From IMG/VR virus record IMGVR_UViG_3300045988_076321: a stretch of 36,548 nt of DNA; one strand, 5' to 3'. The translations under genes and the position numbers were made by a program. Below, piece after piece: positions 14,156 to 36,548 of this stretch. How positions within the stretch are numbered: the first letter of the stretch is position 1; every line of letters begins with the position of its first letter. The DNA is from a virus. Below the pieces are notes generated by a model. That model made no database searches. It worked only from the letters and a program-made list of their open reading frames with translations, and was not told where the DNA came from.

Positions 14156-14902
14156 ATGGCAAGATTTAAGTCTATCGTCACGGACGCCGGAGCGGCGGCC
14201 CTGACGGCCCTGATCGCGGCCGGAAAGCCGCTGATCCTGACCCGTGCGGCGGCCGGAAGCGGCGTCGCCACCGTCAGCCCGAACACCCTGGCGGACCTGG
14301 TGACGCCGGAGAACGTCGCCGTGAGCCTGGGCGAAAAGGATCTGATCGAGGGCGACCCCGCGATCATGCGAATCCCCGTCCAGGTGACGAACGAAGCCCT
14401 GGACGCCCCTGTCTGGATCAGGGAAGTCGCCGTCTACGGGAACACCATCGACAACACAGAAGTCATGTTCTGCTATGGCTGGCTGGACGGCGATGACAGC
14501 GACAACGTCCTTCCGGCGACGTCCTTCGAGGAAGACGCCGACACCGTCCATATCCACGACCTGGCCGTCTTCGTGACGAACCAGGAAGCCGCGTCCGTGT
14601 CCGTACAGGTGGCCCCTGGTTCCTATGTCACCCGTGAGCAAATGACCACCTACGCGGCGCCCCTGGTCCACACCCAGGGCGCGGACACCATCACCGAAAC
14701 CACCGGAGAGAACACGGAACAGGTCCAGCGCCGCCAGGACAGCGACATCGAAGCGATCAAGGAGCAGTTGAACACCGGCTTCACCGGAACCACCGTGACC
14801 CACACCTTCGCCCCCGCGCAGCTTTCCTACTGGAAGGGCTATGACGGGACCGGAGTTCCCGAAGGGATTCTGGACCAGACAAGGAACCGCCTGTATCTGT
14901 GA
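14156..14902 (+). CDS. Tail fibre / tail-collar fibre protein
   Basis: 248 aa. The N-terminus MARFKSIVTDAGAAALTALIAAGKPLILTRAAAGSG... resembles a phage tail-collar fibre N-terminal domain. It is the last gene of the Xkd-like baseplate block. Confidence 0.65.
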   Translation: MARFKSIVTDAGAAALTALIAAGKPLILTRAAAGSGVATVSPNTLADLVTPENVAVSLGEKDLIEGDPAIMRIPVQVTNEALDAPVWIREVAVYGNTIDNTEVMFCYGWLDGDDSDNVLPATSFEEDADTVHIHDLAVFVTNQEAASVSVQVAPGSYVTREQMTTYAAPLVHTQGADTITETTGENTEQVQRRQDSDIEAIKEQLNTGFTGTTVTHTFAPAQLSYWKGYDGTGVPEGILDQTRNRLYL

Positions 14903-15276
14903 CCAGGATCGCCGCCACGCCGTCGGAAACCTCTTGCCTTATATCGAACCTGTTCACGGAACTTCGTCCCGTGTGCGGCTTCTGTGAGGGCGACAGCGTG
15001 GTTCTTTGCGGCATGACCTACGCCGGCACGGAAGAAGCCGTGGTCCTTCGGGACTACGGCTTCGACTTTACCGGAGACGCCGCTGTGGTCGAGAATATCC
15101 GGAATCGAAGGTGTATCAATGGGATCGCGAAGAAACTACCAGCGGAGCCAGCCCAGCAAGGGCGAAAGCCCGCTTCACATTCTGCCCGTCGCGGACAAAA
15201 TGATCGGCTTCACCCTGTCGACGACCGACAACCCGAAGCGTTTTCCGAAGAAGATCAGATTTTCCGTGACGAATAA
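14899..15276 (+). CDS. Hypothetical protein upstream of avd; only the first roughly 73 codons look coding
   Basis: The GTG start overlaps the fibre stop (gtga). Codon style resembles neighbours up to about 15118. The remaining 158 nt overlap avd in another frame. Confidence 0.35.
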   Translation: MTRIAATPSETSCLISNLFTELRPVCGFCEGDSVVLCGMTYAGTEEAVVLRDYGFDFTGDAAVVENIRNRRCINGIAKKLPAEPAQQGRKPASHSARRGQNDRLHPVDDRQPEAFSEEDQIFRDE

Positions 15277-15577
15277 AATCCAGGGCCACGCCCTGGCGAT
15301 CTATGACTACCTGGTCGAAGCGAACGAAATCTTCCCCATAATGGACGACCAGGACAAGGCCGACCGCCTGAAACTTCAGCGCGCCGCGCTGACGGAGTGC
15401 AAGAAACTTTTGCACATGATCCAGCTTTCGAAGGACCGCGGCTATATTGACAGCGGGACCTTCGACTACTGGACGAAGCTGACGGTCGACGTGAAATGTA
15501 TGACCGCCCGATGGTACGACGCCGAACGGAAGACGGGAATCCCCGTCGAGCCGGCCGGCCCGATCCCTGAAGGCTGA
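15119..15577 (+). CDS. avd: DGR accessory variability determinant (Avd, four-helix-bundle protein)
   Basis: 152-aa basic helical ORF with RBS gaaggtg. ...LPVADKMIGFTLSTTDNPKRFPKKIRFSVTNKIQGHALAIYDYLVEANEI... matches the Avd / 23S-rRNA-IVS four-helix-bundle pattern. It sits immediately 5' of the TR. Confidence 0.8.
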   Translation: MGSRRNYQRSQPSKGESPLHILPVADKMIGFTLSTTDNPKRFPKKIRFSVTNKIQGHALAIYDYLVEANEIFPIMDDQDKADRLKLQRAALTECKKLLHMIQLSKDRGYIDSGTFDYWTKLTVDVKCMTARWYDAERKTGIPVEPAGPIPEG

Positions 15578-15604
15578 TCATAAATCATTAGGGAACGATC
15601 TGTC

Positions 15605-15709
15605 ACCCCGAACGCCGGCAACGCGAACAACGCGCGCAATGTCAACACGGACGGCAGTCTGAACAACAACAACGCGTACAACGGCAACAACGGCGTCCGG
15701 CCGGATTTG
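15605..15709 (+). repeat. DGR template repeat (TR)
   Basis: Non-coding 105-nt segment between avd and the RT, with 12 in-phase AAC triplets and 1 AAT. It is identical to VR1 and VR2 except at TR adenines. Confidence 0.95.
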
Positions 15710-15880
15710 GTGGAAAACGGGACTGATTAGGGCGGAAAGCCTGAAAACAGAGTATCACCAACAAAGGAGATCGTTTCCTTCCGAAGGGCCGCGACAGTCC
15801 CTTCGGTAAATACATGATTGACGACGAAAGGCCTTCAACAGCGACGGCCGGACTATCAGCGTCAAGGAGGATTTTTCTTT

Positions 15881-17122
15881 ATGAAGGATCAGGGAACGCC
15901 CGCCCATGACTTCGCGTCCGTGACGGACTTCAACAATCTATATCAATCGTTTACAGAAGCGCGCAAAGGGAAACGGTGGAAGTATTCCGTGTGCAAATAT
16001 GAAGCGAATGTCCTGGAAAACCTTCTGTTCATTCAGGTCATGCTTCAGCGCCATAAATACCGCCTGTCCCCGTACAACTGCTTCTTCGTGCATGAACCGA
16101 AAGAACGGCTGATCATGTATAACAGCTTCCGCGACAAGATCGTTCAGCATTGTTTATGTGAACAGGTCCTTGAACCGCTTCTTTCGAAGACATTCATCTA
16201 TGACAACTACGCGAGTCAGAAGGGCAAAGGGACCCACTTCGGCCTTGACCGACTGAAGGCGTTCATGGCGGCCTACTACCGCAAGAACGGCGCCGGCGGC
16301 TGGGTGCTGAAGTGCGACGTCCGCAAGTATTTCTATCGGATCAATCACGACGTTCTGAAGACCCAGCTTCGCCGGCTGATCAAGGACCGCGACGTCCTGT
16401 GGCTTCTGGACATGATCATCGACTCCACGGAGGGACCAGGGATTCCGATCGGGAACCACACTTCACAATGGTTCGCGATCCTCTACCTGTCCGACATGGA
16501 CCACATGATCAAGGAACGTCTGGGAATCAAATATTATGGCCGATACATGGACGACTTCTATTTGATACATGAGGACAGGGCCTATTTGCAGTTCTGCCTG
16601 GAAGAAATCCGCCGGTTCCTGGTCCCCCTGGGCCTGGAACTGAACCAGAAGACGGCCATATTCCCGTTATCCCAGGGGATCGACTTCCTGGGCTTTCGGA
16701 CCTACCTGACGGACAGCGGAAAGGTCGTCCGGAAGGTACGCCGTGAGAGCAAGAACCGGATCAGGCGGAAGATCACGAAGTTCCGCCACCTGGTAGACGA
16801 AGGCCGTGTCGACTTCGACACGGTCCTTCAGTCTTATAATTCCTGGACCGGCCACGCCGAACACGGCAACAGTTATCACCTGATCAGCGAGATCGACGAC
16901 CTGTTCTTCAACCTGTTCAGGAAAGAAATGGAGGGAAAACCCTATGGCGAAATCTCTATCCGCTTTGCCCGTTGGAAGCGTCGTCAAGTCGGCGAACACA
17001 AAGTACAACGGACAGGCGATCAGGTGGATCGTCGGCACACAGGACACGTCCCAGGGCCGAACGGGCCTGGTGACGGAAAAGATGATCACCCTGAAATGCT
17101 TCGACGCGAAGGAGTCCGGTAA
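15881..17122 (+). CDS. DGR reverse transcriptase
   Basis: RBS aaggagg sits 9 nt upstream of ATG 15881. RT motifs include ...GIPIGNHTSQWFAILYL... (DGR-type [IV]GxxxSQ) and ...YGRYMDDFYLIH... (YxDD). The last 179 nt overlap the downstream target gene out of frame. Confidence 0.95.
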   Translation: MKDQGTPAHDFASVTDFNNLYQSFTEARKGKRWKYSVCKYEANVLENLLFIQVMLQRHKYRLSPYNCFFVHEPKERLIMYNSFRDKIVQHCLCEQVLEPLLSKTFIYDNYASQKGKGTHFGLDRLKAFMAAYYRKNGAGGWVLKCDVRKYFYRINHDVLKTQLRRLIKDRDVLWLLDMIIDSTEGPGIPIGNHTSQWFAILYLSDMDHMIKERLGIKYYGRYMDDFYLIHEDRAYLQFCLEEIRRFLVPLGLELNQKTAIFPLSQGIDFLGFRTYLTDSGKVVRKVRRESKNRIRRKITKFRHLVDEGRVDFDTVLQSYNSWTGHAEHGNSYHLISEIDDLFFNLFRKEMEGKPYGEISIRFARWKRRQVGEHKVQRTGDQVDRRHTGHVPGPNGPGDGKDDHPEMLRREGVR

Positions 17123-18650
17123 CAGCAACAGCGACCGCCGGAGTTACGGCAATAACCGTTATTCCGTTTCGAACATCGACAAGTGGCTGAACAGTGCGGC
17201 CGCGTCCTGGTATGCCGCACAGCACGGAGCCGACGCCCCGCCCACGTCCGCGAACTGTTGGAACGGCTATAACCCCTACGACACCGAAGCCGGCTTCCTG
17301 GCGAACTTCGAAGCCGCCTTCCGAAACGCGATCCTGGATTCCACGATCCGCGTCGCGAAGAACACCGTCACCGACGGCGGCGGTTATGAAGACATCGTTC
17401 GACAGGTCTTTTTGCTTTCGAACACGAACGTCGGCCTTTCCAACGAAAACGGCGTGGCCGAAGGTTCCTTGTGGTCCTACTTCAATTCCGCGTCGCGCCG
17501 CCAGTGCTACCCCACGGCGGAAGCCGTCAGCAAGTCCACCTACACCAGTTCCAGCCTGTCCGCTTCTCAATATTGGTGGTGGTGGTTAAGAACCCCGCAC
17601 GCCGGCAACGCGTACTACGCGCGCAATGTCTACACGGACGGCAGTCTGAACAACGGCTACGCGTACAGCGGCCCCGGCGGCGTCCGGCCGGCTTTGTATT
17701 TGGCATCTTCGAATCTGGTATCCGATACAACCGACACAGACGGCGCTTATATCCTTCTGTGGAACCAGCCGCCCACAGCCCCGTCTTCCATTACCTACGG
17801 CACCCCCCAGGCGGGACAGAACCTGACCCTGTCGACCGGCGGATCGACCGATCCGGAGGGCGACGCCATTTCCTACGTCTGGGAACGGAAGGTGGATTCC
17901 GGCGTCTGGACCCAGATCGGGATCACCACCGCGAAGACGATCCAGGACACGGTCCCGTCCAGCGGAACAACCTACTACGCGCGCGTGAAGGCCGTGGACG
18001 CGGTCGGGAATGAATCGGCATATTGCACCGGTTCCGGAAAGGCCATTTCCTACAACACCCCGCCCGTGATCAGCGGTTCCGACCAGAACATGGGCGCGAA
18101 GACCGACCCCTTCACCTACAAATACACCGTCACCGACGCCCAGTCCGCCACCCAGACCATGACCGTGACGGAAACCCTGACCAACGGAACGGAAACCATC
18201 ACCCTTCGCACCTACACGGCCACGGCCGGCGCCCAGAACACCGCCGACCTGTCGTCCGTCTGGATCAGGCTGACCGCGGGGACCCACGTCCTGAAGATCA
18301 CCGCTTCCGACGGCGCCGGTGGAACGGCTGTCCGGAACATCACCTTCAGCCGCACCGTCACCAGGATCGCCGCGGCCCGCGCCTTCAACACCGACGCGAA
18401 GGTCACGAAGGTCTTCGTTTCCCTGTACCCGTCCGACCGTCCGGCCGGTTCCACGCTCCACCTGGAAGTGACGAACAACCCGTTCGACACGAACCCCGTC
18501 TGGGAGGACATCACAGAGAAGGCGAACCGCCTGGTCCACACCTTCGCGAACAGCACCGTCGCAAATGGCTACGGCCTGGGCTATCGGTTCTATCTGCTGA
18601 AGGGAACGGAGGAAATCGAGATCACCCAGGCGACGATCCGTTTCGCCTGA
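16944..18650 (+). CDS. DGR target protein 1: fibre/receptor-binding-like protein with an N-terminal C-type-lectin-fold-like variable domain followed by Ig/FN3-like repeats
   Basis: 568-aa ORF with RBS ggaggga. Contains VR1, which encodes WWWWLRTPHAGNAYYARNVYTDGSLNNGYAYSGPGGVRPALYL. Downstream are beta-rich repeats (PPTAPSSITYGTPQAGQNLTLSTGGSTDPEGDAISYVWERKVD...). Confidence 0.9.
   Translation: MAKSLSALPVGSVVKSANTKYNGQAIRWIVGTQDTSQGRTGLVTEKMITLKCFDAKESGNSNSDRRSYGNNRYSVSNIDKWLNSAAASWYAAQHGADAPPTSANCWNGYNPYDTEAGFLANFEAAFRNAILDSTIRVAKNTVTDGGGYEDIVRQVFLLSNTNVGLSNENGVAEGSLWSYFNSASRRQCYPTAEAVSKSTYTSSSLSASQYWWWWLRTPHAGNAYYARNVYTDGSLNNGYAYSGPGGVRPALYLASSNLVSDTTDTDGAYILLWNQPPTAPSSITYGTPQAGQNLTLSTGGSTDPEGDAISYVWERKVDSGVWTQIGITTAKTIQDTVPSSGTTYYARVKAVDAVGNESAYCTGSGKAISYNTPPVISGSDQNMGAKTDPFTYKYTVTDAQSATQTMTVTETLTNGTETITLRTYTATAGAQNTADLSSVWIRLTAGTHVLKITASDGAGGTAVRNITFSRTVTRIAAARAFNTDAKVTKVFVSLYPSDRPAGSTLHLEVTNNPFDTNPVWEDITEKANRLVHTFANSTVANGYGLGYRFYLLKGTEEIEITQATIRFA
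17592..17696 (+). repeat. DGR variable repeat 1 (VR1)
   Basis: Hand alignment to the TR shows 13 mismatches over 105 nt, all at TR adenines (e.g. AAC to CAC, TAC, GGC, AGC, CCC). Confidence 0.95.
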
Positions 18651-18668
18651 TGAAAGGAGGGAAGCAAA

Positions 18669-19142
18669 ATGTCTTTCAACTCGCACGACTGCGAAACCGT
18701 CAGCATGAAGGAAGCCCAGGAACAGGAAAAGAACAACCCCGTCACCCAGATCGCGGCGGCGGCGTCCATCGCCTTCGTGGTCCTGGCGGAGGGCGGCCAG
18801 ATCGACGACGTCACCGCCACGGAGAACGTCGAGCAGTTCGCCCCCTGGGCCTACCCGATCGCCTACAAAAAGGGCAATATCCGCCGCTACGGTTCCGACC
18901 TGTACCGGTGCAACCAGGACCACACTTCGCAAGCCGACTGGACCCCCGCGGCCGCCGCGTCCCTGTGGTCGAAGATCGGCGACCCGACGGAGGAATGGCC
19001 GGAATGGTCCCAGCCGGTCGGCGCCCATGACGCCTATAACGCCGGCGCGAAGGTGTCCCATAACGGGAAGCACTGGACGTCCGACGTCGCGTCGAACGTC
19101 TGGGAACCTGGCGTCTACGGTTGGACGGAGGTGACGGCATGA
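18669..19142 (+). CDS. Protein with two CBM5/12-like carbohydrate-binding repeats
   Basis: 157 aa with RBS gaaaggaggg. Repeats YKKGNIRRYGSDLYRCNQDHTSQADWTPAAAASLW and YNAGAKVSHNGKHWTSDVASNVWEPGVYGW resemble the chitin-binding CBM5/12 signature. Confidence 0.6.
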   Translation: MSFNSHDCETVSMKEAQEQEKNNPVTQIAAAASIAFVVLAEGGQIDDVTATENVEQFAPWAYPIAYKKGNIRRYGSDLYRCNQDHTSQADWTPAAAASLWSKIGDPTEEWPEWSQPVGAHDAYNAGAKVSHNGKHWTSDVASNVWEPGVYGWTEVTA

Positions 19143-19378
19143 CCGAAGGGATCATCATCGCCGTTCTTTCTATGGTCGGCACGTTGGCCGGTGCCTACCT
19201 GGCGAACCGGAAAAGTTCCGCCCTGATTGCCTATCGCCTGGATAAGCTGGAAGAGAAGGTCGACAAGCATAATTCTGTGATCGAACGGACCTTCAAGCTG
19301 GAAGAACAGGCCGCCCTTATCGAAGAGCGGATCAAGGTCGCGAACCACCGGATCGAAGACCTTGAAAAGGCACAGTAA
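19139..19378 (+). CDS. N-terminally membrane-anchored coiled-coil protein (lysis-module accessory)
   Basis: The ATG overlaps the upstream stop (atga) and RBS ggagg lies 8 nt upstream. One TM segment (GIIIAVLSMVGTLAGAYLA) is followed by a coiled coil (LDKLEEKVDKHNSVIERTFKLEEQAALIEERIKVANHRIEDLEK). Confidence 0.6.
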   Translation: MTEGIIIAVLSMVGTLAGAYLANRKSSALIAYRLDKLEEKVDKHNSVIERTFKLEEQAALIEERIKVANHRIEDLEKAQ

Positions 19379-22369: not shown

Positions 22370-23416
22370 ATGAAACGTCGCAGATTCAAGCAACTGACCA
22401 GAGCGGATCGCCTGAATATCGAAAAGTATCTTCGCCAGGGTATGACGAAACAGGCCGTCGCCGACGCCCTGGGCGTCAGCCTTCGAACGGTATATTATGA
22501 ACTGAAGCGCGGCCAGTATATCCACACCAATTCCGACCTTACGGAGGAAGTCCGTTATAGCTGTGACGTCGCCGAATCAGTCAAGAAGTACAACGGCACG
22601 AACAAAGGCCCACAGTTAAAGATCGGCAACGACCACGAACTGGCGGCCTACATTGAACGGCGGATCGTGGAAGACGGCTATTCGCCGGCGGCGGTCCTTG
22701 GAGAAATCCGCGTCAAGGGAATGAAGTTCAAGACGTCGATCTGTAAGTCGACACTGTATTCCTATATCCGGAAGGGCGTCTTCCTGACCCTTGAAATGCG
22801 CGACCTTCCCCGTCACGGTAAGAACAAGCGCGGCTACACCCGCACCCACAAGAAGGGCGCCAGGGCGTCCGCCGGAACCAGCATTGAACACCGGCCGGAG
22901 GAAGTGAACGCCAGGACGACCGTCGGTCATTGGGAAATGGACTCCGTCCTGGGAAAGAAGAAGACGAAGCCGGCCCTTCTGGTCCTGTCTGAACGACTGT
23001 CCAGGAAGGAACTGATCATCAAGGTCCAGGATCACACCGCCGCCAGCGTAGTTCGCGCCCTGGACCGCCTGGAACGGAAGATGGGATCGCCGGCCTTCCG
23101 TGCCACCTTCAAGTCGATAACCGTCGACAATGGTTCCGAGTTTGCCGACGTCGACGGCATGGAACGAAGCTGTCGCCGAAAGGGGCCGCGGACGAAGGTC
23201 TATTACTGCCACCCCTATTCTTCCTGGGAACGCGGGACCAACGAAAACACGAACGGCCTGATCCGCCGCTGGTTCCCGAAGGGGACAGACTTCAGCAAAG
23301 TCAGCGTCCAGGAAATCCAGAAGGTCGAAGACTGGCTGAACGCCTATCCCCGCGAAATCCTGGGCTTCCTATCTGCTGACGCGGTCTTCTCCACCGCCTT
23401 CGCGGCCTGTGTCTGA
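22370..23416 (+). CDS. IS30-family DDE transposase/recombinase
   Basis: 348 aa. It has an N-terminal HTH (RADRLNIEKYLRQGMTKQAVADALGVSLRTVYYELKRG) and DDE region motifs HWEMDSV, TVDNGSEF and SSWERGTNENTNGLIRRWFPKGTDF. No flanking inverted repeats could be identified by eye. Confidence 0.9.
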   Translation: MKRRRFKQLTRADRLNIEKYLRQGMTKQAVADALGVSLRTVYYELKRGQYIHTNSDLTEEVRYSCDVAESVKKYNGTNKGPQLKIGNDHELAAYIERRIVEDGYSPAAVLGEIRVKGMKFKTSICKSTLYSYIRKGVFLTLEMRDLPRHGKNKRGYTRTHKKGARASAGTSIEHRPEEVNARTTVGHWEMDSVLGKKKTKPALLVLSERLSRKELIIKVQDHTAASVVRALDRLERKMGSPAFRATFKSITVDNGSEFADVDGMERSCRRKGPRTKVYYCHPYSSWERGTNENTNGLIRRWFPKGTDFSKVSVQEIQKVEDWLNAYPREILGFLSADAVFSTAFAACV

Positions 23417-27491: not shown

Positions 27492-27896
27492 GTGGAAACC
27501 TGGAAAGTGACGATCCCTGGCCTTTTACCTGGCCTGAATGAGTACATAGACGCGGAACGCGCCGTCAAGGGCAAGTACAAGGCCGCCGCCATGAAGAAAC
27601 AGGCCGAAAATGTGATCGGCTTCATGGTGAAGACCCAGCTTCGCGGTGTCCGCTTCGACCGGCCGGTGATCATTCATTACCGCTGGATCGAGCCGAACCG
27701 CCGCCGCGACAAGGACAACGTCGCCTTCGCGAAGAAGTTCATTCAGGACAGCCTGGTCCACGCCGGCGTCCTGGTGAACGACGGCTGGAACCAGATCGAG
27801 GGCTTCACGGACGACTTCGCCGTGGACCCGAAGAACCCCCGCGTGGAAGTGACTATCGAGATATTCGAAGGAGGAAAACGACATGGCAAATATTAA
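27492..27896 (+). CDS. rusA: RusA-family Holliday junction resolvase
   Basis: 134 aa with a GTG start. ...LPGLNEYI...RRRDKDNVAFAKKFIQDSLVHAGVLVNDGW... shows the RusA catalytic Asp pattern. Confidence 0.75.
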   Translation: METWKVTIPGLLPGLNEYIDAERAVKGKYKAAAMKKQAENVIGFMVKTQLRGVRFDRPVIIHYRWIEPNRRRDKDNVAFAKKFIQDSLVHAGVLVNDGWNQIEGFTDDFAVDPKNPRVEVTIEIFEGGKRHGKY

Positions 27897-28479
27897 GACT
27901 TTGAAGGACCTGACCCCTGGGACCGTCTTCGACGCCGGCCCGATCGACGTCCGCGTCCTGGATCACATGACCAACGGGACGACCCTTCTGATCGCCGACA
28001 AGGCGGTCGCGTGGCGTCCCTTCTCCCTGGAACCCCTGAAGACCCGTCCGGAGGAAGCGCCTACCCCTTACCCGAACGACTTCAGCCTGTCCTATCTGAA
28101 GGACGAACTGAACGGTCCCTTCCTGGCGGCCTTCGACACCGCCGGCGGCCCGATCCGTTCCGCGAACATCGTGGAAGCGAACTGGTCCCTGGCAGATCAC
28201 CGCGGCGGCTTCGGCTACGGCAACACGAAGGCGAAGATCAGCCTTCTTCCCGAAGCCCTGTTCCTGAAGTACAAGTCCCTTCTGGCCCTGGACGACTGGT
28301 GGTGGCTTGCGACCCCGTACGCCGGCCACGCGCGCATCGCGCGCACTGTCATCACGGACGGCAGTCTGTACGGCTACTACGCGTACCTCGGCTACCGCGG
28401 CGTCCGGCCGGCTTTCTTCGCGGAATCTGGAATCATTCTGGAATCCGACGGCGGCGAAGCGGTGGAAGCCCATGAATAA
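27883..28479 (+). CDS. DGR target protein 2: stand-alone variable ligand-binding domain protein (remote target)
   Basis: 198-aa ORF overlapping the rusA end by 14 nt. Its C-terminal part carries VR2 (DDWWWLATPYAGHARIARTVITDGSLYGYYAYLGYRGVRPAFFAES). The fold signature (W..L..P...GVRPA) is shared with target 1. No N-terminal signal or TM segment is visible. Confidence 0.9.
   Translation: MANIKTLKDLTPGTVFDAGPIDVRVLDHMTNGTTLLIADKAVAWRPFSLEPLKTRPEEAPTPYPNDFSLSYLKDELNGPFLAAFDTAGGPIRSANIVEANWSLADHRGGFGYGNTKAKISLLPEALFLKYKSLLALDDWWWLATPYAGHARIARTVITDGSLYGYYAYLGYRGVRPAFFAESGIILESDGGEAVEAHE
28312..28415 (+). repeat. DGR variable repeat 2 (VR2)
   Basis: Hand alignment to TR 15605-15708 shows 18 mismatches, all at TR adenines. 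The first non-A mismatch (G vs C) is at 28416 and marks the repeat boundary. Confidence 0.95.
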
Positions 28480-28726
28480 TCCCGCGACGACCCGCGAGTG
28501 GATCGGCCGGCGGCGCCTTCGGGCGTCCGTCGACCGGACCCTGGGCGTGAAGGTGCCGAAGGTGGTCTTCGACGAAGCGGAAGCATACGCCAGACGGAAG
28601 ATGGCCTTCCAGAACGAAGTCCTGGGCCTGGACCGCGGCGACGAATACTTGGAACTTCTGATCCCCGACGTGATCCGCGAAATGGTCCTGGCGGCCAGGT
28701 ATGACGGAAGGAGGGCGACGGCGTGA
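28472..28726 (+). CDS. Hypothetical protein
   Basis: 84-aa ORF. Its ATG overlaps the end of target 2, and its stop overlaps the methyltransferase GTG (gtga). Confidence 0.5.
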   Translation: MNNPATTREWIGRRRLRASVDRTLGVKVPKVVFDEAEAYARRKMAFQNEVLGLDRGDEYLELLIPDVIREMVLAARYDGRRATA

Positions 28727-30039
28727 AATTACTGATCGGCGGTTCGCCGTGTACGCATTGGAGTATAGCCCAGACGAAGCACAGAGAAACGGAGCCTTCC
28801 GGCCTGGGCTGGGAATTGTTCCTGAACTATCTGATCGCAAGGGAAAAATATCGTCCGGACTATTTCCTGTATGAAAACAACAAGTCTATGTCGCCGGCGA
28901 TCAGGGCGCAGATCACCCGCGAACTGGGTGTCGAACCGATCCTGATCAATTCGGCCCTTGTCAGCGCCCAGAGTCGACAGCGGCTATACTGGACGAATAT
29001 TCCTGGCGTGGAGCAACCGGAGGATCGCGGAATCCTGGTCCGCGACATACTGGAAAGCGGTGTCTGCTGGAAAGATAAGGCGTACACGCTGAAAGCGTCA
29101 GCGGGCCACCAGAACGGCCCTTCGAACATTATCCGGAGCATTGAAACCAACGGCCATTTCTCCGCAAATGGCGTGGCGGAACCCGTCAACATCACCGCAG
29201 ACGGGAAGGCGCAATGTTTACGGGCTACTTATTACAAGGACGGGATTCGAAATCTTGTCGGGAACACGATTGACCGGAAGACCTGTGTCGCCGTCCGTGT
29301 CGGTGATATGCCAAACGCCGAAGGCGAAATCATCGGGAGCCAGAGCAAGCGCGTTTACAGCGTCGACGGAAAGTCTGTTCCGTTACAGGCACGGCCGAAC
29401 GGCGGCGGAGCGGACGGAGCGGCGACCGGCCTATATGCGGTTCCGACCGGTATCGCATGGCGGGGCCGTGACGGTTCTTCTTCCTACGAAGCCCGAAGCG
29501 ATCAGAAGACGAACGCCGTGACGGCGGACGGCCACCAAAGCCGCATGGTGATTATAGCCGCTGGCGGAAAGGCACACCCCGTCTATTCCGTCACGGACGG
29601 ATTTATCGAAATCAAGGGGAAGAAGTACCCGATCCGGCTTCCGGACGGCCTGTATATTATCCGCAAACTGACCGTCAACGAATGCAAACGCCTTCAAACG
29701 GTTCCGGAATGGTATCGCTTCAGCGTAAGTCAGACCCAGGCCTACAAAATGTTGGGGAACGGCTGGACGGTGGACGTGATCAGCCATATTTTATCCTATT
29801 GCCCAGGCCTGACGGAAACGCCGACCGAAGTATTTTCCATGTATGACGGAATGTCGTGCGGGCGACTGGCCCTTCTGAAGCTGGGTGTGAATATCACAAA
29901 TTACTATGCGACGGAGATCGACAAATACGCGATCGCAACCACACAGGAAAATTTCCCCGATACGGTCCAGTTAGGGGACGCCTTCCAGGTTCGGGAAGAC
30001 GGTTGGACACTTCAGAAAGGCGGTGCAATCAATGAGTGA
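28723..30039 (+). CDS. DNA (cytosine-5) methyltransferase with apparently permuted motif order (IV-X followed by I-III)
   Basis: 438 aa with RBS ggaaggaggg. The motifs, read in order, are as follows:
- IV: LIGGSPCTHWS
- VI: FLYENNKS
- VIII: SAQSRQRLYW
- IX: RKLTVNECKRLQTVPEWY
- X: YKMLGNGWTVDVI
- I: VFSMYDGMSCGRLAL
- II: YYATEIDKYA
- III: QLGDAFQV. Confidence 0.75.
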   Translation: MKLLIGGSPCTHWSIAQTKHRETEPSGLGWELFLNYLIAREKYRPDYFLYENNKSMSPAIRAQITRELGVEPILINSALVSAQSRQRLYWTNIPGVEQPEDRGILVRDILESGVCWKDKAYTLKASAGHQNGPSNIIRSIETNGHFSANGVAEPVNITADGKAQCLRATYYKDGIRNLVGNTIDRKTCVAVRVGDMPNAEGEIIGSQSKRVYSVDGKSVPLQARPNGGGADGAATGLYAVPTGIAWRGRDGSSSYEARSDQKTNAVTADGHQSRMVIIAAGGKAHPVYSVTDGFIEIKGKKYPIRLPDGLYIIRKLTVNECKRLQTVPEWYRFSVSQTQAYKMLGNGWTVDVISHILSYCPGLTETPTEVFSMYDGMSCGRLALLKLGVNITNYYATEIDKYAIATTQENFPDTVQLGDAFQVREDGWTLQKGGAINE

Positions 30040-35363: not shown

Positions 35364-36548
35364 ATGGCCGAATATTCCGTCATGGACCGGATCAATATGA
35401 TCATTTCCGATCCGGACCACGCGACAATGACCCTGGCCCAGATCGTGACCGAAGAAATCAGGGAGTTTAAGGCATCCGAGCAGTACGCGAACATGATCCA
35501 GGCCGAAGCCTATTACAGAAACCGGACCGACGTCCAGCGGAAGACGAACGACGTCGCGAACCGGTCGAATACCAGGATCGAACACCCGATTCTGAAGAAG
35601 CTGGTCGACCAGAAGGCGAACTACCTTCTGGGGAAGCCCTTCACCGTGGACACGAAGAACAGTTCCTACGGCGACGCCCTGAACGACGTCTTCGACCAGA
35701 CCTTCCGCCGGAAGATTAAGTCCCTGGGGAAGGGCGCTGTGAAGTCCGGTATTGCATGGCTTCAGCCCTACTTCGACGACGGGAAACTGGCCTTCATGCG
35801 AATCCCGTCCGCGGAACTGGTCCCGATCTGGCGCGACGCAGAGCGAACGAAGCTGGACGCCTTCATTCGCTTCTATGACCAGGTGATCTACATCGGCACC
35901 AGGAAGCACACGATCACCCACGCCGAACTGTGGTGGACCGGCGGCGTCAAGTATTTCAAAACCGACGCCTTCGCCGGCACCATCGCCGGCGACTTCATCG
36001 TCGACACCGAACACGGCGACGAAGCCAACGACTACACCGAACCCCATTTCACCGTCGGCGACAAGGCCTACAACTGGGACACCGTCCCGATCGTCTGGCT
36101 GAAGTACAACGAAGAGGAACTTCCCCTTTGCTACTTCATCAAGGACCTGATCGACGACATCAACTGGCAGACGTCCGTGACCGCCGACGTTCTCCGCGAC
36201 GTGGCGAAGTTCATCTATATCCTGAAGAACTACGGCGGCCAGGACTTGGGCGAGTTCATCAAGGACCTGAAGGAACACATGGCGATCAAAGTCACCACCG
36301 ACGGCGGTGTGGACAAACTTCAGGCCGATCTTAATATCGACGCCGTCATGGCCTTCCTGGATAAACAGCGACGCGACGTCTACGACTTCGCCGCGGCCGT
36401 CGACACGAAGGACCCTGACCTGGGGAACGCGTCCGGAACGGCGATCAATTTCCGCTATATGGACCTGTCGTCCGACTGCGATTCCCTGGCGACCGAACTG
36501 AAGGACACCTTCCAGCGCCTGAAACTGTTCATCGACGTTTACCTTCAG
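35364..36548 (+). CDS. Portal protein (SPP1 gp6-like), N-terminal part; continues at 142..450 of the window through the circular junction
   Basis: ATG 35364 lies after RBS aagggag. I translated by hand and the frame is open to the window end. The total reconstructed length is about 497 aa. Confidence 0.85.
   Translation, partial: MAEYSVMDRINMIISDPDHATMTLAQIVTEEIREFKASEQYANMIQAEAYYRNRTDVQRKTNDVANRSNTRIEHPILKKLVDQKANYLLGKPFTVDTKNSSYGDALNDVFDQTFRRKIKSLGKGAVKSGIAWLQPYFDDGKLAFMRIPSAELVPIWRDAERTKLDAFIRFYDQVIYIGTRKHTITHAELWWTGGVKYFKTDAFAGTIAGDFIVDTEHGDEANDYTEPHFTVGDKAYNWDTVPIVWLKYNEEELPLCYFIKDLIDDINWQTSVTADVLRDVAKFIYILKNYGGQDLGEFIKDLKEHMAIKVTTDGGVDKLQADLNIDAVMAFLDKQRRDVYDFAAAVDTKDPDLGNASGTAINFRYMDLSSDCDSLATELKDTFQRLKLFIDVYLQ
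36408..36548. repeat. Terminal direct repeat, identical to 1..141
   Basis: Same 141-nt string as the window start. Confidence 0.9.

Follow-up and report, generated by a model that had tools for sequence, protein, structure and literature searches.

The window analysed here, IMG/VR virus record IMGVR_UViG_3300045988_076321, is a stretch of viral DNA of 36,548 nucleotides (nt). It very probably carries a diversity-generating retroelement (DGR) with two targets, in which the first target is a tentaclin and the reverse transcriptase (RT) has a neutral tail that reads on into the tentaclin gene. Proteins of phages nd4 and nd12 are the founding tentaclins (Baykov et al. 2023, Int J Mol Sci 24:17324, PMC10743442), and the protein architecture, the cassette with two targets and the hypothesis on display have been in print since 2023. 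The repeats and the protein architecture found in the window lie far past chance expectation; the length of the overlap does not.

Template repeat, variable repeats and reverse transcriptase

The cassette has the order avd, template repeat (TR), RT, target 1, and the second target lies 9.6 kb off. Its parts, with open reading frames (ORFs) given in amino acids (aa) and variable repeats abbreviated as VR, are the following.

15119-15577, plus strand: avd, the gene of the DGR accessory protein (phrog_3206 'Avd protein of DGR', E 1.3e-23)
15605-15709, plus strand: template repeat TR, 105 nt, with 32 adenines and 13 AAC codons in the VR frame
15881-17122, plus strand: DGR reverse transcriptase ORF, 413 aa from ATG (Pfam RVT_1, E 6e-18; phrog_1423, E 2e-139)
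16944-18650, plus strand: target 1, tentaclin-type DGR variable protein, 568 aa (phrog_10993, E 2.4e-200)
17592-17696, plus strand: VR1, residues 217-251 of target 1
27883-28479, plus strand: target 2, single-domain DUF6273-type protein, 198 aa (phrog_9958, E 3e-37; Pfam DUF6273, E 3e-7)
28312-28415, plus strand: VR2, residues 144-178 of the 198-aa target 2

A repeat family with three copies (15590-15721, 17577-17708 and 28297-28428) was refined to the boundaries of TR, VR1 and VR2. For VR1 the refined boundaries agree exactly with residues 217-251 of the 568-aa protein, where the initial annotation had placed it. All 13 mismatches between TR and VR1 are at TR adenines; as 32 of the 105 TR bases are A, the probability of this by chance is about 0.305^13 = 2e-7. 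The mismatches between TR and VR2 are likewise at TR adenines (18/18), and target 2 is served by the same TR as target 1.

The same pattern is seen among relatives. VR1 was compared in 31 sequences, the window and 30 relatives from IMG/VR contigs and genomes. Every one of the 31 VR1 sequences is distinct, the TR is nearly invariant, and nearly all TR/VR mismatches are at adenines. The column entropy of VR1 is 1.40 bits at TR-A columns against 0.24 bits elsewhere. The 90%-identity protein clusters of the target 1 family hold thousands of member sequences, as expected of a hypervariable gene. The sequences thus compared point to ongoing, adenine-directed diversification of the mid-gene VR1.

By established DGR biology, the RT and Avd would copy the TR RNA into cDNA, misincorporating opposite adenines, and the mutated cDNA would then take the place of VR1 and VR2. 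The 13 AAC codons should make about 15^13 protein variants reachable without stop codons.

The RT ORF opens at TTG 15818 and ends at 17122. Translation likely begins at ATG 15881, which is preceded by a Shine-Dalgarno-like AAGGAGG whose centre lies about 14 nt upstream. Motifs of the DGR clade are present, IGNHTSQ at residue 190 (IGxxxSQ) and YMDD at residue 222. The conserved core stops at about residue 345 (about position 16915) in alignment with the RTs of nd12, nd4 and Faecalibacterium phage Brigit. The true start of avd may be the internal Met at 15200, and the Pfam match of its product to 23S_rRNA_IVP, 24.8 bits, is under the family cut-off.

Target 2 is flanked by a RusA-like gene (27492-27896) on one side and a gene for a C5 cytosine methylase (28723-30039) on the other. 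This places it in the replication/early region, away from the tail genes and 9.6 kb from the RT.

The overlap of the RT and tentaclin genes

16944-17122, plus strand: RT/tentaclin overlap, 179 nt; in the RT frame a 59-residue Arg/Gly-rich tail without a wobble signature of its own

The initial annotation had the RT reading 179 nt into the target gene in another frame, with an Arg/Gly-rich tail that looked non-functional, and the first part of that description stands while the second is supported. Codon position 1 of the RT coincides with codon position 3 of target 1. The 59 residues of the RT tail inside the target 1 gene are 32% Arg+Gly, against 14% in the RT core, and have an isoelectric point of 10.4. 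In the proposed mechanism the RT gene, having no stop before the tentaclin ATG, would read on until a chance stop. The tail would not be selected as protein, and its length would drift as synonymous substitutions in the tentaclin gene make or remove stops.

Relatives of the window show such a series of stops. Both frames are kept in all 37 close relatives, which come from independent metagenome, metagenome-assembled genome and isolate records, and the RT tail of the window is co-linear with those of its closest relatives as far as the window stop. The overlap in the lineage measures 65, 122, 134, 161, 179, 191, 209 or 212 nt, with 179 nt found in the window only. Phage nd12 has 16 nt and nd4 has 92 nt, and in the Faecalibacterium phages Brigit and Mushu the two genes are separated by gaps of 23 and 43 nt. 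The TAA that ends the window RT arises by a change of GGC to GGT at tentaclin Gly59, which is synonymous there; the closest relatives read 33 nt further. The group with 191 nt ends in a TGA that lies across AGT-GAC, which the tentaclin frame reads as Ser-Asp; AGC-GAC stands at this place in the 212-nt group.

Substitutions follow the wobble phase of the tentaclin gene. Nucleotide diversity is highest at RT position 3 up to a point about 31 nt short of the tentaclin ATG, and from the ATG onward at tentaclin position 3. Within the overlap RT position 3 is the least variable phase, and diversity at tentaclin position 3, taken relative to positions 1 and 2, is not lowered. Similarity in RT alignments fades past about residue 345-350, and the nd12 RT, just 351 aa long, is without a basic tail. 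A stop-free run of at least 179 nt in the overlap frame is found in 36% of entries; stops occur at 1.8% per codon and the genome is 60% GC.

Judged from these alignments, the RT/tentaclin overlap is genuine but appears to be an unconstrained read-on. The initial annotation had also raised translational coupling of RT and target. As a conserved mechanism this is unsupported, homologous cassettes having overlaps of anywhere from 0 to 212 nt. By the relatives' series, constraint on the RT ends at about residue 345 in this clade, and the series also provides a clean case of stop-codon drift in the alternative frame of a GC-rich gene.

A second read-on overlap lies nearby. An ORF at 14899-15276 runs 77-158 nt into avd (15119-15577), and it matches phrog_21058 over its first 75 residues only.

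The overlap bears on how target 1 is annotated. Public gene calls often start the tentaclin inside the gene, giving 522 aa from Met47 or 537 aa from residue 32, and the nd4 GenBank coding sequence starts 27 codons late. Conservation of residues 1-46, which the overlap encodes, extends to nd12, nd4 and the homologue of Bacillus phage PBS1, and these residues form strands predicted with high confidence (predicted local distance difference test, pLDDT, >94). Because these residues are conserved in distant homologues and fold confidently, ATG 16944 is taken as the true start of target 1. The internal starts in databases probably stem from gene callers that penalise the long RT overlap. Such late start calls strip four strands of the folded binding domain. 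A target 1 that starts at ATG 16944 would yield peptides from MAKSLSALPVGSVVK.

Fold and display of target 1 and the alternatives

16944-17759, plus strand: N-terminal DUF6273 variable domain (C-type lectin, C-lec, like), residues 1-272 (PF19789, E 1e-37; AlphaFold2)
17790-18353, plus strand: two FN3/immunoglobulin (Ig)-like stalk domains, residues ~283-370 and 375-470 (AlphaFold2 pLDDT 80-94; Foldseek)
18402-18647, plus strand: Ig-like domain at the C-terminus ('Cterm-Ig' anchor), residues ~487-568 (alignment with nd12, nd4 and Brigit)

Target 1 matches phrog_10993 end to end, residues 1-568 against profile positions 1-554 of 556 in PHROGs. The Pfam DUF6273 match spans residues 42-254 (E 1e-37), and no other Pfam family is reported in the protein. 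An AlphaFold2 model of residues 1-280, built on 93 diverse homologues from a profile search, has a pLDDT of 96.1 and a predicted template modelling score (pTM) of 0.93. In this model VR1 is a β-hairpin, with strands 225-229 and 235-239, a TDGS turn between them and flanking loops in addition, and the DUF6273 domain carries it at its C-terminal edge. The full-length AlphaFold2 run used a shallow alignment of 32 sequences that are 70-96% identical; its N-domain has a pLDDT <50 and is unusable. The same run shows three β-sandwich domains downstream, with pLDDT of about 90 for residues 283-370, about 80 for 375-470 and 50-70 for 487-568.

Foldseek searches with the domains after the VR found the tandem FN3 domains of contactin, titin and gp130, together with FN3-bearing phage proteins; the best PDB match has E 1e-8. 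The roughly 320 Ig/FN3-like residues that had been proposed to follow the variable domain are thus accounted for. The last 110 residues share 20 invariant positions with nd12, nd4 and Brigit (TF, D, T, PA, NN..D..P.WED.T, H.F.N, G, F). Residues 361-518 (18024-18497) have a family profile match to PDB 31he_AAA, 'Tail fiber protein', with E 1.9e-6, and the second Ig domain opens with a PVISGSD..lG.K motif that both share.

In the proposed arrangement residues 1-272 would be a binding domain, with the 35 VR-encoded residues near its end. A short Pro-rich linker and the two FN3/Ig-like domains would form the stalk, and the conserved C-terminal Ig-like domain would anchor target 1 to the virion. 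Gene position suggests that target 1 likely attaches to the tail or baseplate, with the capsid possible too. The mid-protein VR had been singled out as unusual. Its position in the protein does differ, VR1 ending 317 residues before the C-terminus, unlike in Mtd-like variable proteins. The VR still ends its own domain, however, and the architecture was named in 2023. By sequence and model, the VR appears mid-protein solely because stalk and anchor are fused downstream, so that the C-terminal rule would hold at the level of the domain. The expectation that such a protein is displayed differently from Mtd-like fibres agrees with an N-terminal variable domain followed by Ig/FN3 repeats, as in the published tentaclins (PMC10743442).

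Some results weigh against the reading of a tentaclin with a lectin-like binding domain and a neutral RT tail. Foldseek of the N-domain against the PDB gave one significant match only, the DUF6273 domain of 9qa6, the lectin and FGE-like matches, to CD23, SP-A and EgtB, having E >4. The same search recovered no Mtd, TvpA or FGE. In hhalign the N-domain profile had no similarity to Mtd (probability 0.4%). The fold foreseen in the initial annotation, a C-type-lectin/FGE-like domain with Ig domains after it, was thus found in its order, a DUF6273 domain placed N-terminally with Ig domains behind, but with no significant C-type-lectin or FGE match by Foldseek. In addition, the RTs of Mushu and Brigit (417 and 396 aa) have basic C-terminal tails of 30-50 residues that lie outside any overlap. 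The window RT tail at about residues 355-375 (RFARWKRRQV...) could be a nucleic-acid-binding extension and the counterpart of these tails, though the odds are long against it.

The location of target 1 on the virion could be read differently. The protein could be Hoc-like, displayed on the head and diversified to stick to mucus or host glycans and not to bacterial receptors. 'Hoc-like head decoration' is the annotation of phrog_10993 and of the homologues in Brigit and Mushu, the tandem Ig-like domains of target 1 resemble Hoc, and mucus binding was proposed by Cornuault et al. 2018. The 'Hoc-like' label, however, rests on generic Ig-like domains. A tblastn search of target 1 against 50,697 phage records found no T4-like genome at E up to 1e-5, and according to Baykov et al. 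(PMC10743442) Hoc has no lectin domain at its N-terminus and is anchored by a different domain. The target 1 gene comes after the baseplate and tail-fibre genes, outside the head module, and the family profile matches the solved 'tail fiber protein' 31he over residues 361-518 (E 2e-6). Display on the head in the manner of Hoc is therefore held to be unlikely.

Function of the overlap is the second alternative. The RT tail would be a dual-coded nucleic-acid-binding extension, or the overlap would couple or balance translation of RT and tentaclin. In nd12, nd4 and 37/37 close relatives the two genes overlap by at least 16 nt, and the first 60 nt of the overlap are somewhat less variable than the sequence after. 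The basic tails of Mushu and Brigit also bear on this, and Mushu has 'PYGAIS' against 'PYGEIS' in the window (in full, 'GEIPYGAIS' in the Mushu RT where the window RT has 'GKPYGEISI'). If the basic tail were functional, both frames would be coding in the first ~60 nt of the tentaclin gene, and the amounts of the diversifying enzyme and of its main target would be tied together by the overlap. Against this, the RT stop ranges from 16 to 212 nt into the target and is shifted by substitutions silent in the tentaclin frame. Across the overlap RT position 3 varies least, the tentaclin position-3 to 1/2 ratio is not reduced, and the nd12 RT stops 16 nt into the target without a basic tail. The run length matches chance, and a similar read-on is found near avd (ORF 14899-15276). 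A functional overlap is on balance improbable, and the neutral read-on is retained.

A trimeric, Mtd-like tip protein of a tail fibre, with extra C-terminal domains, is a very improbable identity for target 1. The VR does close a putative C-lec-type domain on its C-terminal side, and the gene is beside tail genes, but hhalign and Foldseek gave no likeness to Mtd, and the domain order is reversed, with the variable domain N-terminal and no β-prism. An overlap created by a sequencing or assembly indel, extending the RT or shifting the target start, can be dismissed: apart from the many public gene calls that start target 1 at internal codons nothing was found for it, while the same frames recur in 37 relatives from independent records, the RT tail is co-linear with its closest relatives, and the N-terminus of target 1 is conserved in distant homologues and folds confidently.

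The phage, its host and related systems

An identical 141-nt direct repeat is present at both window ends (1-141 and 36408-36548). On this account the window is taken as a complete phage genome of about 36.4 kb, circular or terminally redundant. A copy of target 1 with 95% identity occurs in a 399-kb contig of the cultured isolate Lawsonibacter sp. LCP25S3_E2 (NZ_JBQKJL010000001.1), and on this ground the phage is a temperate phage of Oscillospiraceae. The window is a temperate, myovirus-type phage of that family, and the Lawsonibacter sp. LCP25S3_E2 prophage likely points to its host.

Upstream (5') of the cassette are baseplate J, Mu gp48-like and tail-fibre genes, then the small ORF, avd, TR, RT and target 1. 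Downstream (3') of target 1 are a gene for a CBM5/12 protein and an amidase gene with an SH3 domain. The gene order around the cassette is the same in nd12 and Brigit. The CBM5/12 gene (18669-19142) encodes a 157-aa protein with two carbohydrate-binding modules, and it lies 18 nt past the tentaclin stop, before the lysis genes. An IS30-like transposase gene (22370-23416; HTH_38 and rve integrase core) is found within the phage genome.

An Rfam scan of the whole window gave no family above threshold, and the TR-RT spacer is thus without a known RNA family. A promoter and terminator scan of 14800-19300 gave nothing above shuffled expectation. A search for hairpins or cruciforms 3' of the VRs found a weak 9-nt inverted repeat 39 nt past VR1 and none past VR2.

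There is little here for discovery, the architecture being already published and the tentaclin family abundant in gut metagenomes, with >1,600 clusters at 90% identity in one search. By tblastn against GenBank phages, full-length homologues of target 1 are found in nd12 (43.6% identity) and nd4 (41.6%), over 98% of the protein. Partial homologues are found in the Faecalibacterium phages Brigit, Mushu, Toutatis and Lelie and in the Bacillus jumbo phages PBS1 and AR9.

The nearest known systems are nd12 and nd4 (OR777946, OR777945). Target 1 of the published tentaclin DGRs has its VR close to the gene's 5' end, a C-lec domain followed by Ig domains and a VR that forms a β-hairpin; its C-terminal Ig domain carries a seven-residue consensus logo, and a second small C-lec target with a 3' VR uses the same TR (PMC10743442). 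Like them, the window has an N-terminal DUF6273 domain, putatively of C-lec type, with a predicted VR hairpin, three Ig-like domains, the last of them conserved, the order avd, TR, RT, target 1, and a second small target of putative C-lec type with a C-terminal VR; all are small gut myoviruses. The position of VR1 is therefore matched in its homologues. The window belongs to another lineage, however, with patchy nucleotide matches at 66-73% and a Lawsonibacter-type host. Its target 2, at 198 aa, is shorter than those of nd12 and nd4 (234 and 294 aa) and lies 9.6 kb off between the RusA-like and methylase genes, and the 179-nt RT overlap exceeds the 16 and 92 nt found there.

The 'Hoc-like head decoration' targets of FP_Brigit, FP_Mushu and FP_Toutatis have carried that label since 2018, when mucus binding was proposed (Cornuault et al. 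2018). They share a homologous C-terminal region with target 1 (27-37% identity over residues 368-554), have the RT directly upstream and lie at the junction of the tail and lysis modules. In Faecalibacterium prophage targets the VR is likewise reported by others to be at the C-terminal end of the DUF6273 domain. Brigit and Mushu differ from the window in having four Ig domains (Baykov et al., PMC10743442), more divergent N-terminal domains, and RT and target genes that do not overlap.

The canonical DGR target, Mtd from Bordetella phage BPP-1, resembles target 1 in that the VR ends a ligand-binding domain, the TR is AAC-rich and the RT works with an Avd. It is unlike target 1 in that its variable domain comes last in the protein, at the extreme C-terminus, and its cassette has the gene order target, avd, TR, RT.

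The DUF6273 domain is also found away from DGRs. The IgA peptidase ThomasA of Thomasclavelia ramosa (PDB 9qa6; EMBO J 2025) has an N-terminal DUF6273 domain with the WWLRTP...GVRPA motif, as in target 1. It is the sole solved structure with DUF6273 and matches the target 1 N-domain by family profile (alignment A3, E 4e-17) and by Foldseek (TM 0.74). Unlike target 1, ThomasA is a bacterial secreted protease and no DGR target, and its DUF6273 domain is assigned no ligand in that paper (EMBO J 2025). The 1438-aa protein of PBS1 and AR9 (phrog_24060; PBS1_2610) also has an N-terminal DUF6273 domain and then FN3 repeats, with 36% identity over residues 5-372. It is much longer than target 1, and the 4-kb stretch examined has no RT gene next to it. 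The PBS1 homologue therefore indicates that the DUF6273-FN3 architecture exists also without a neighbouring RT.

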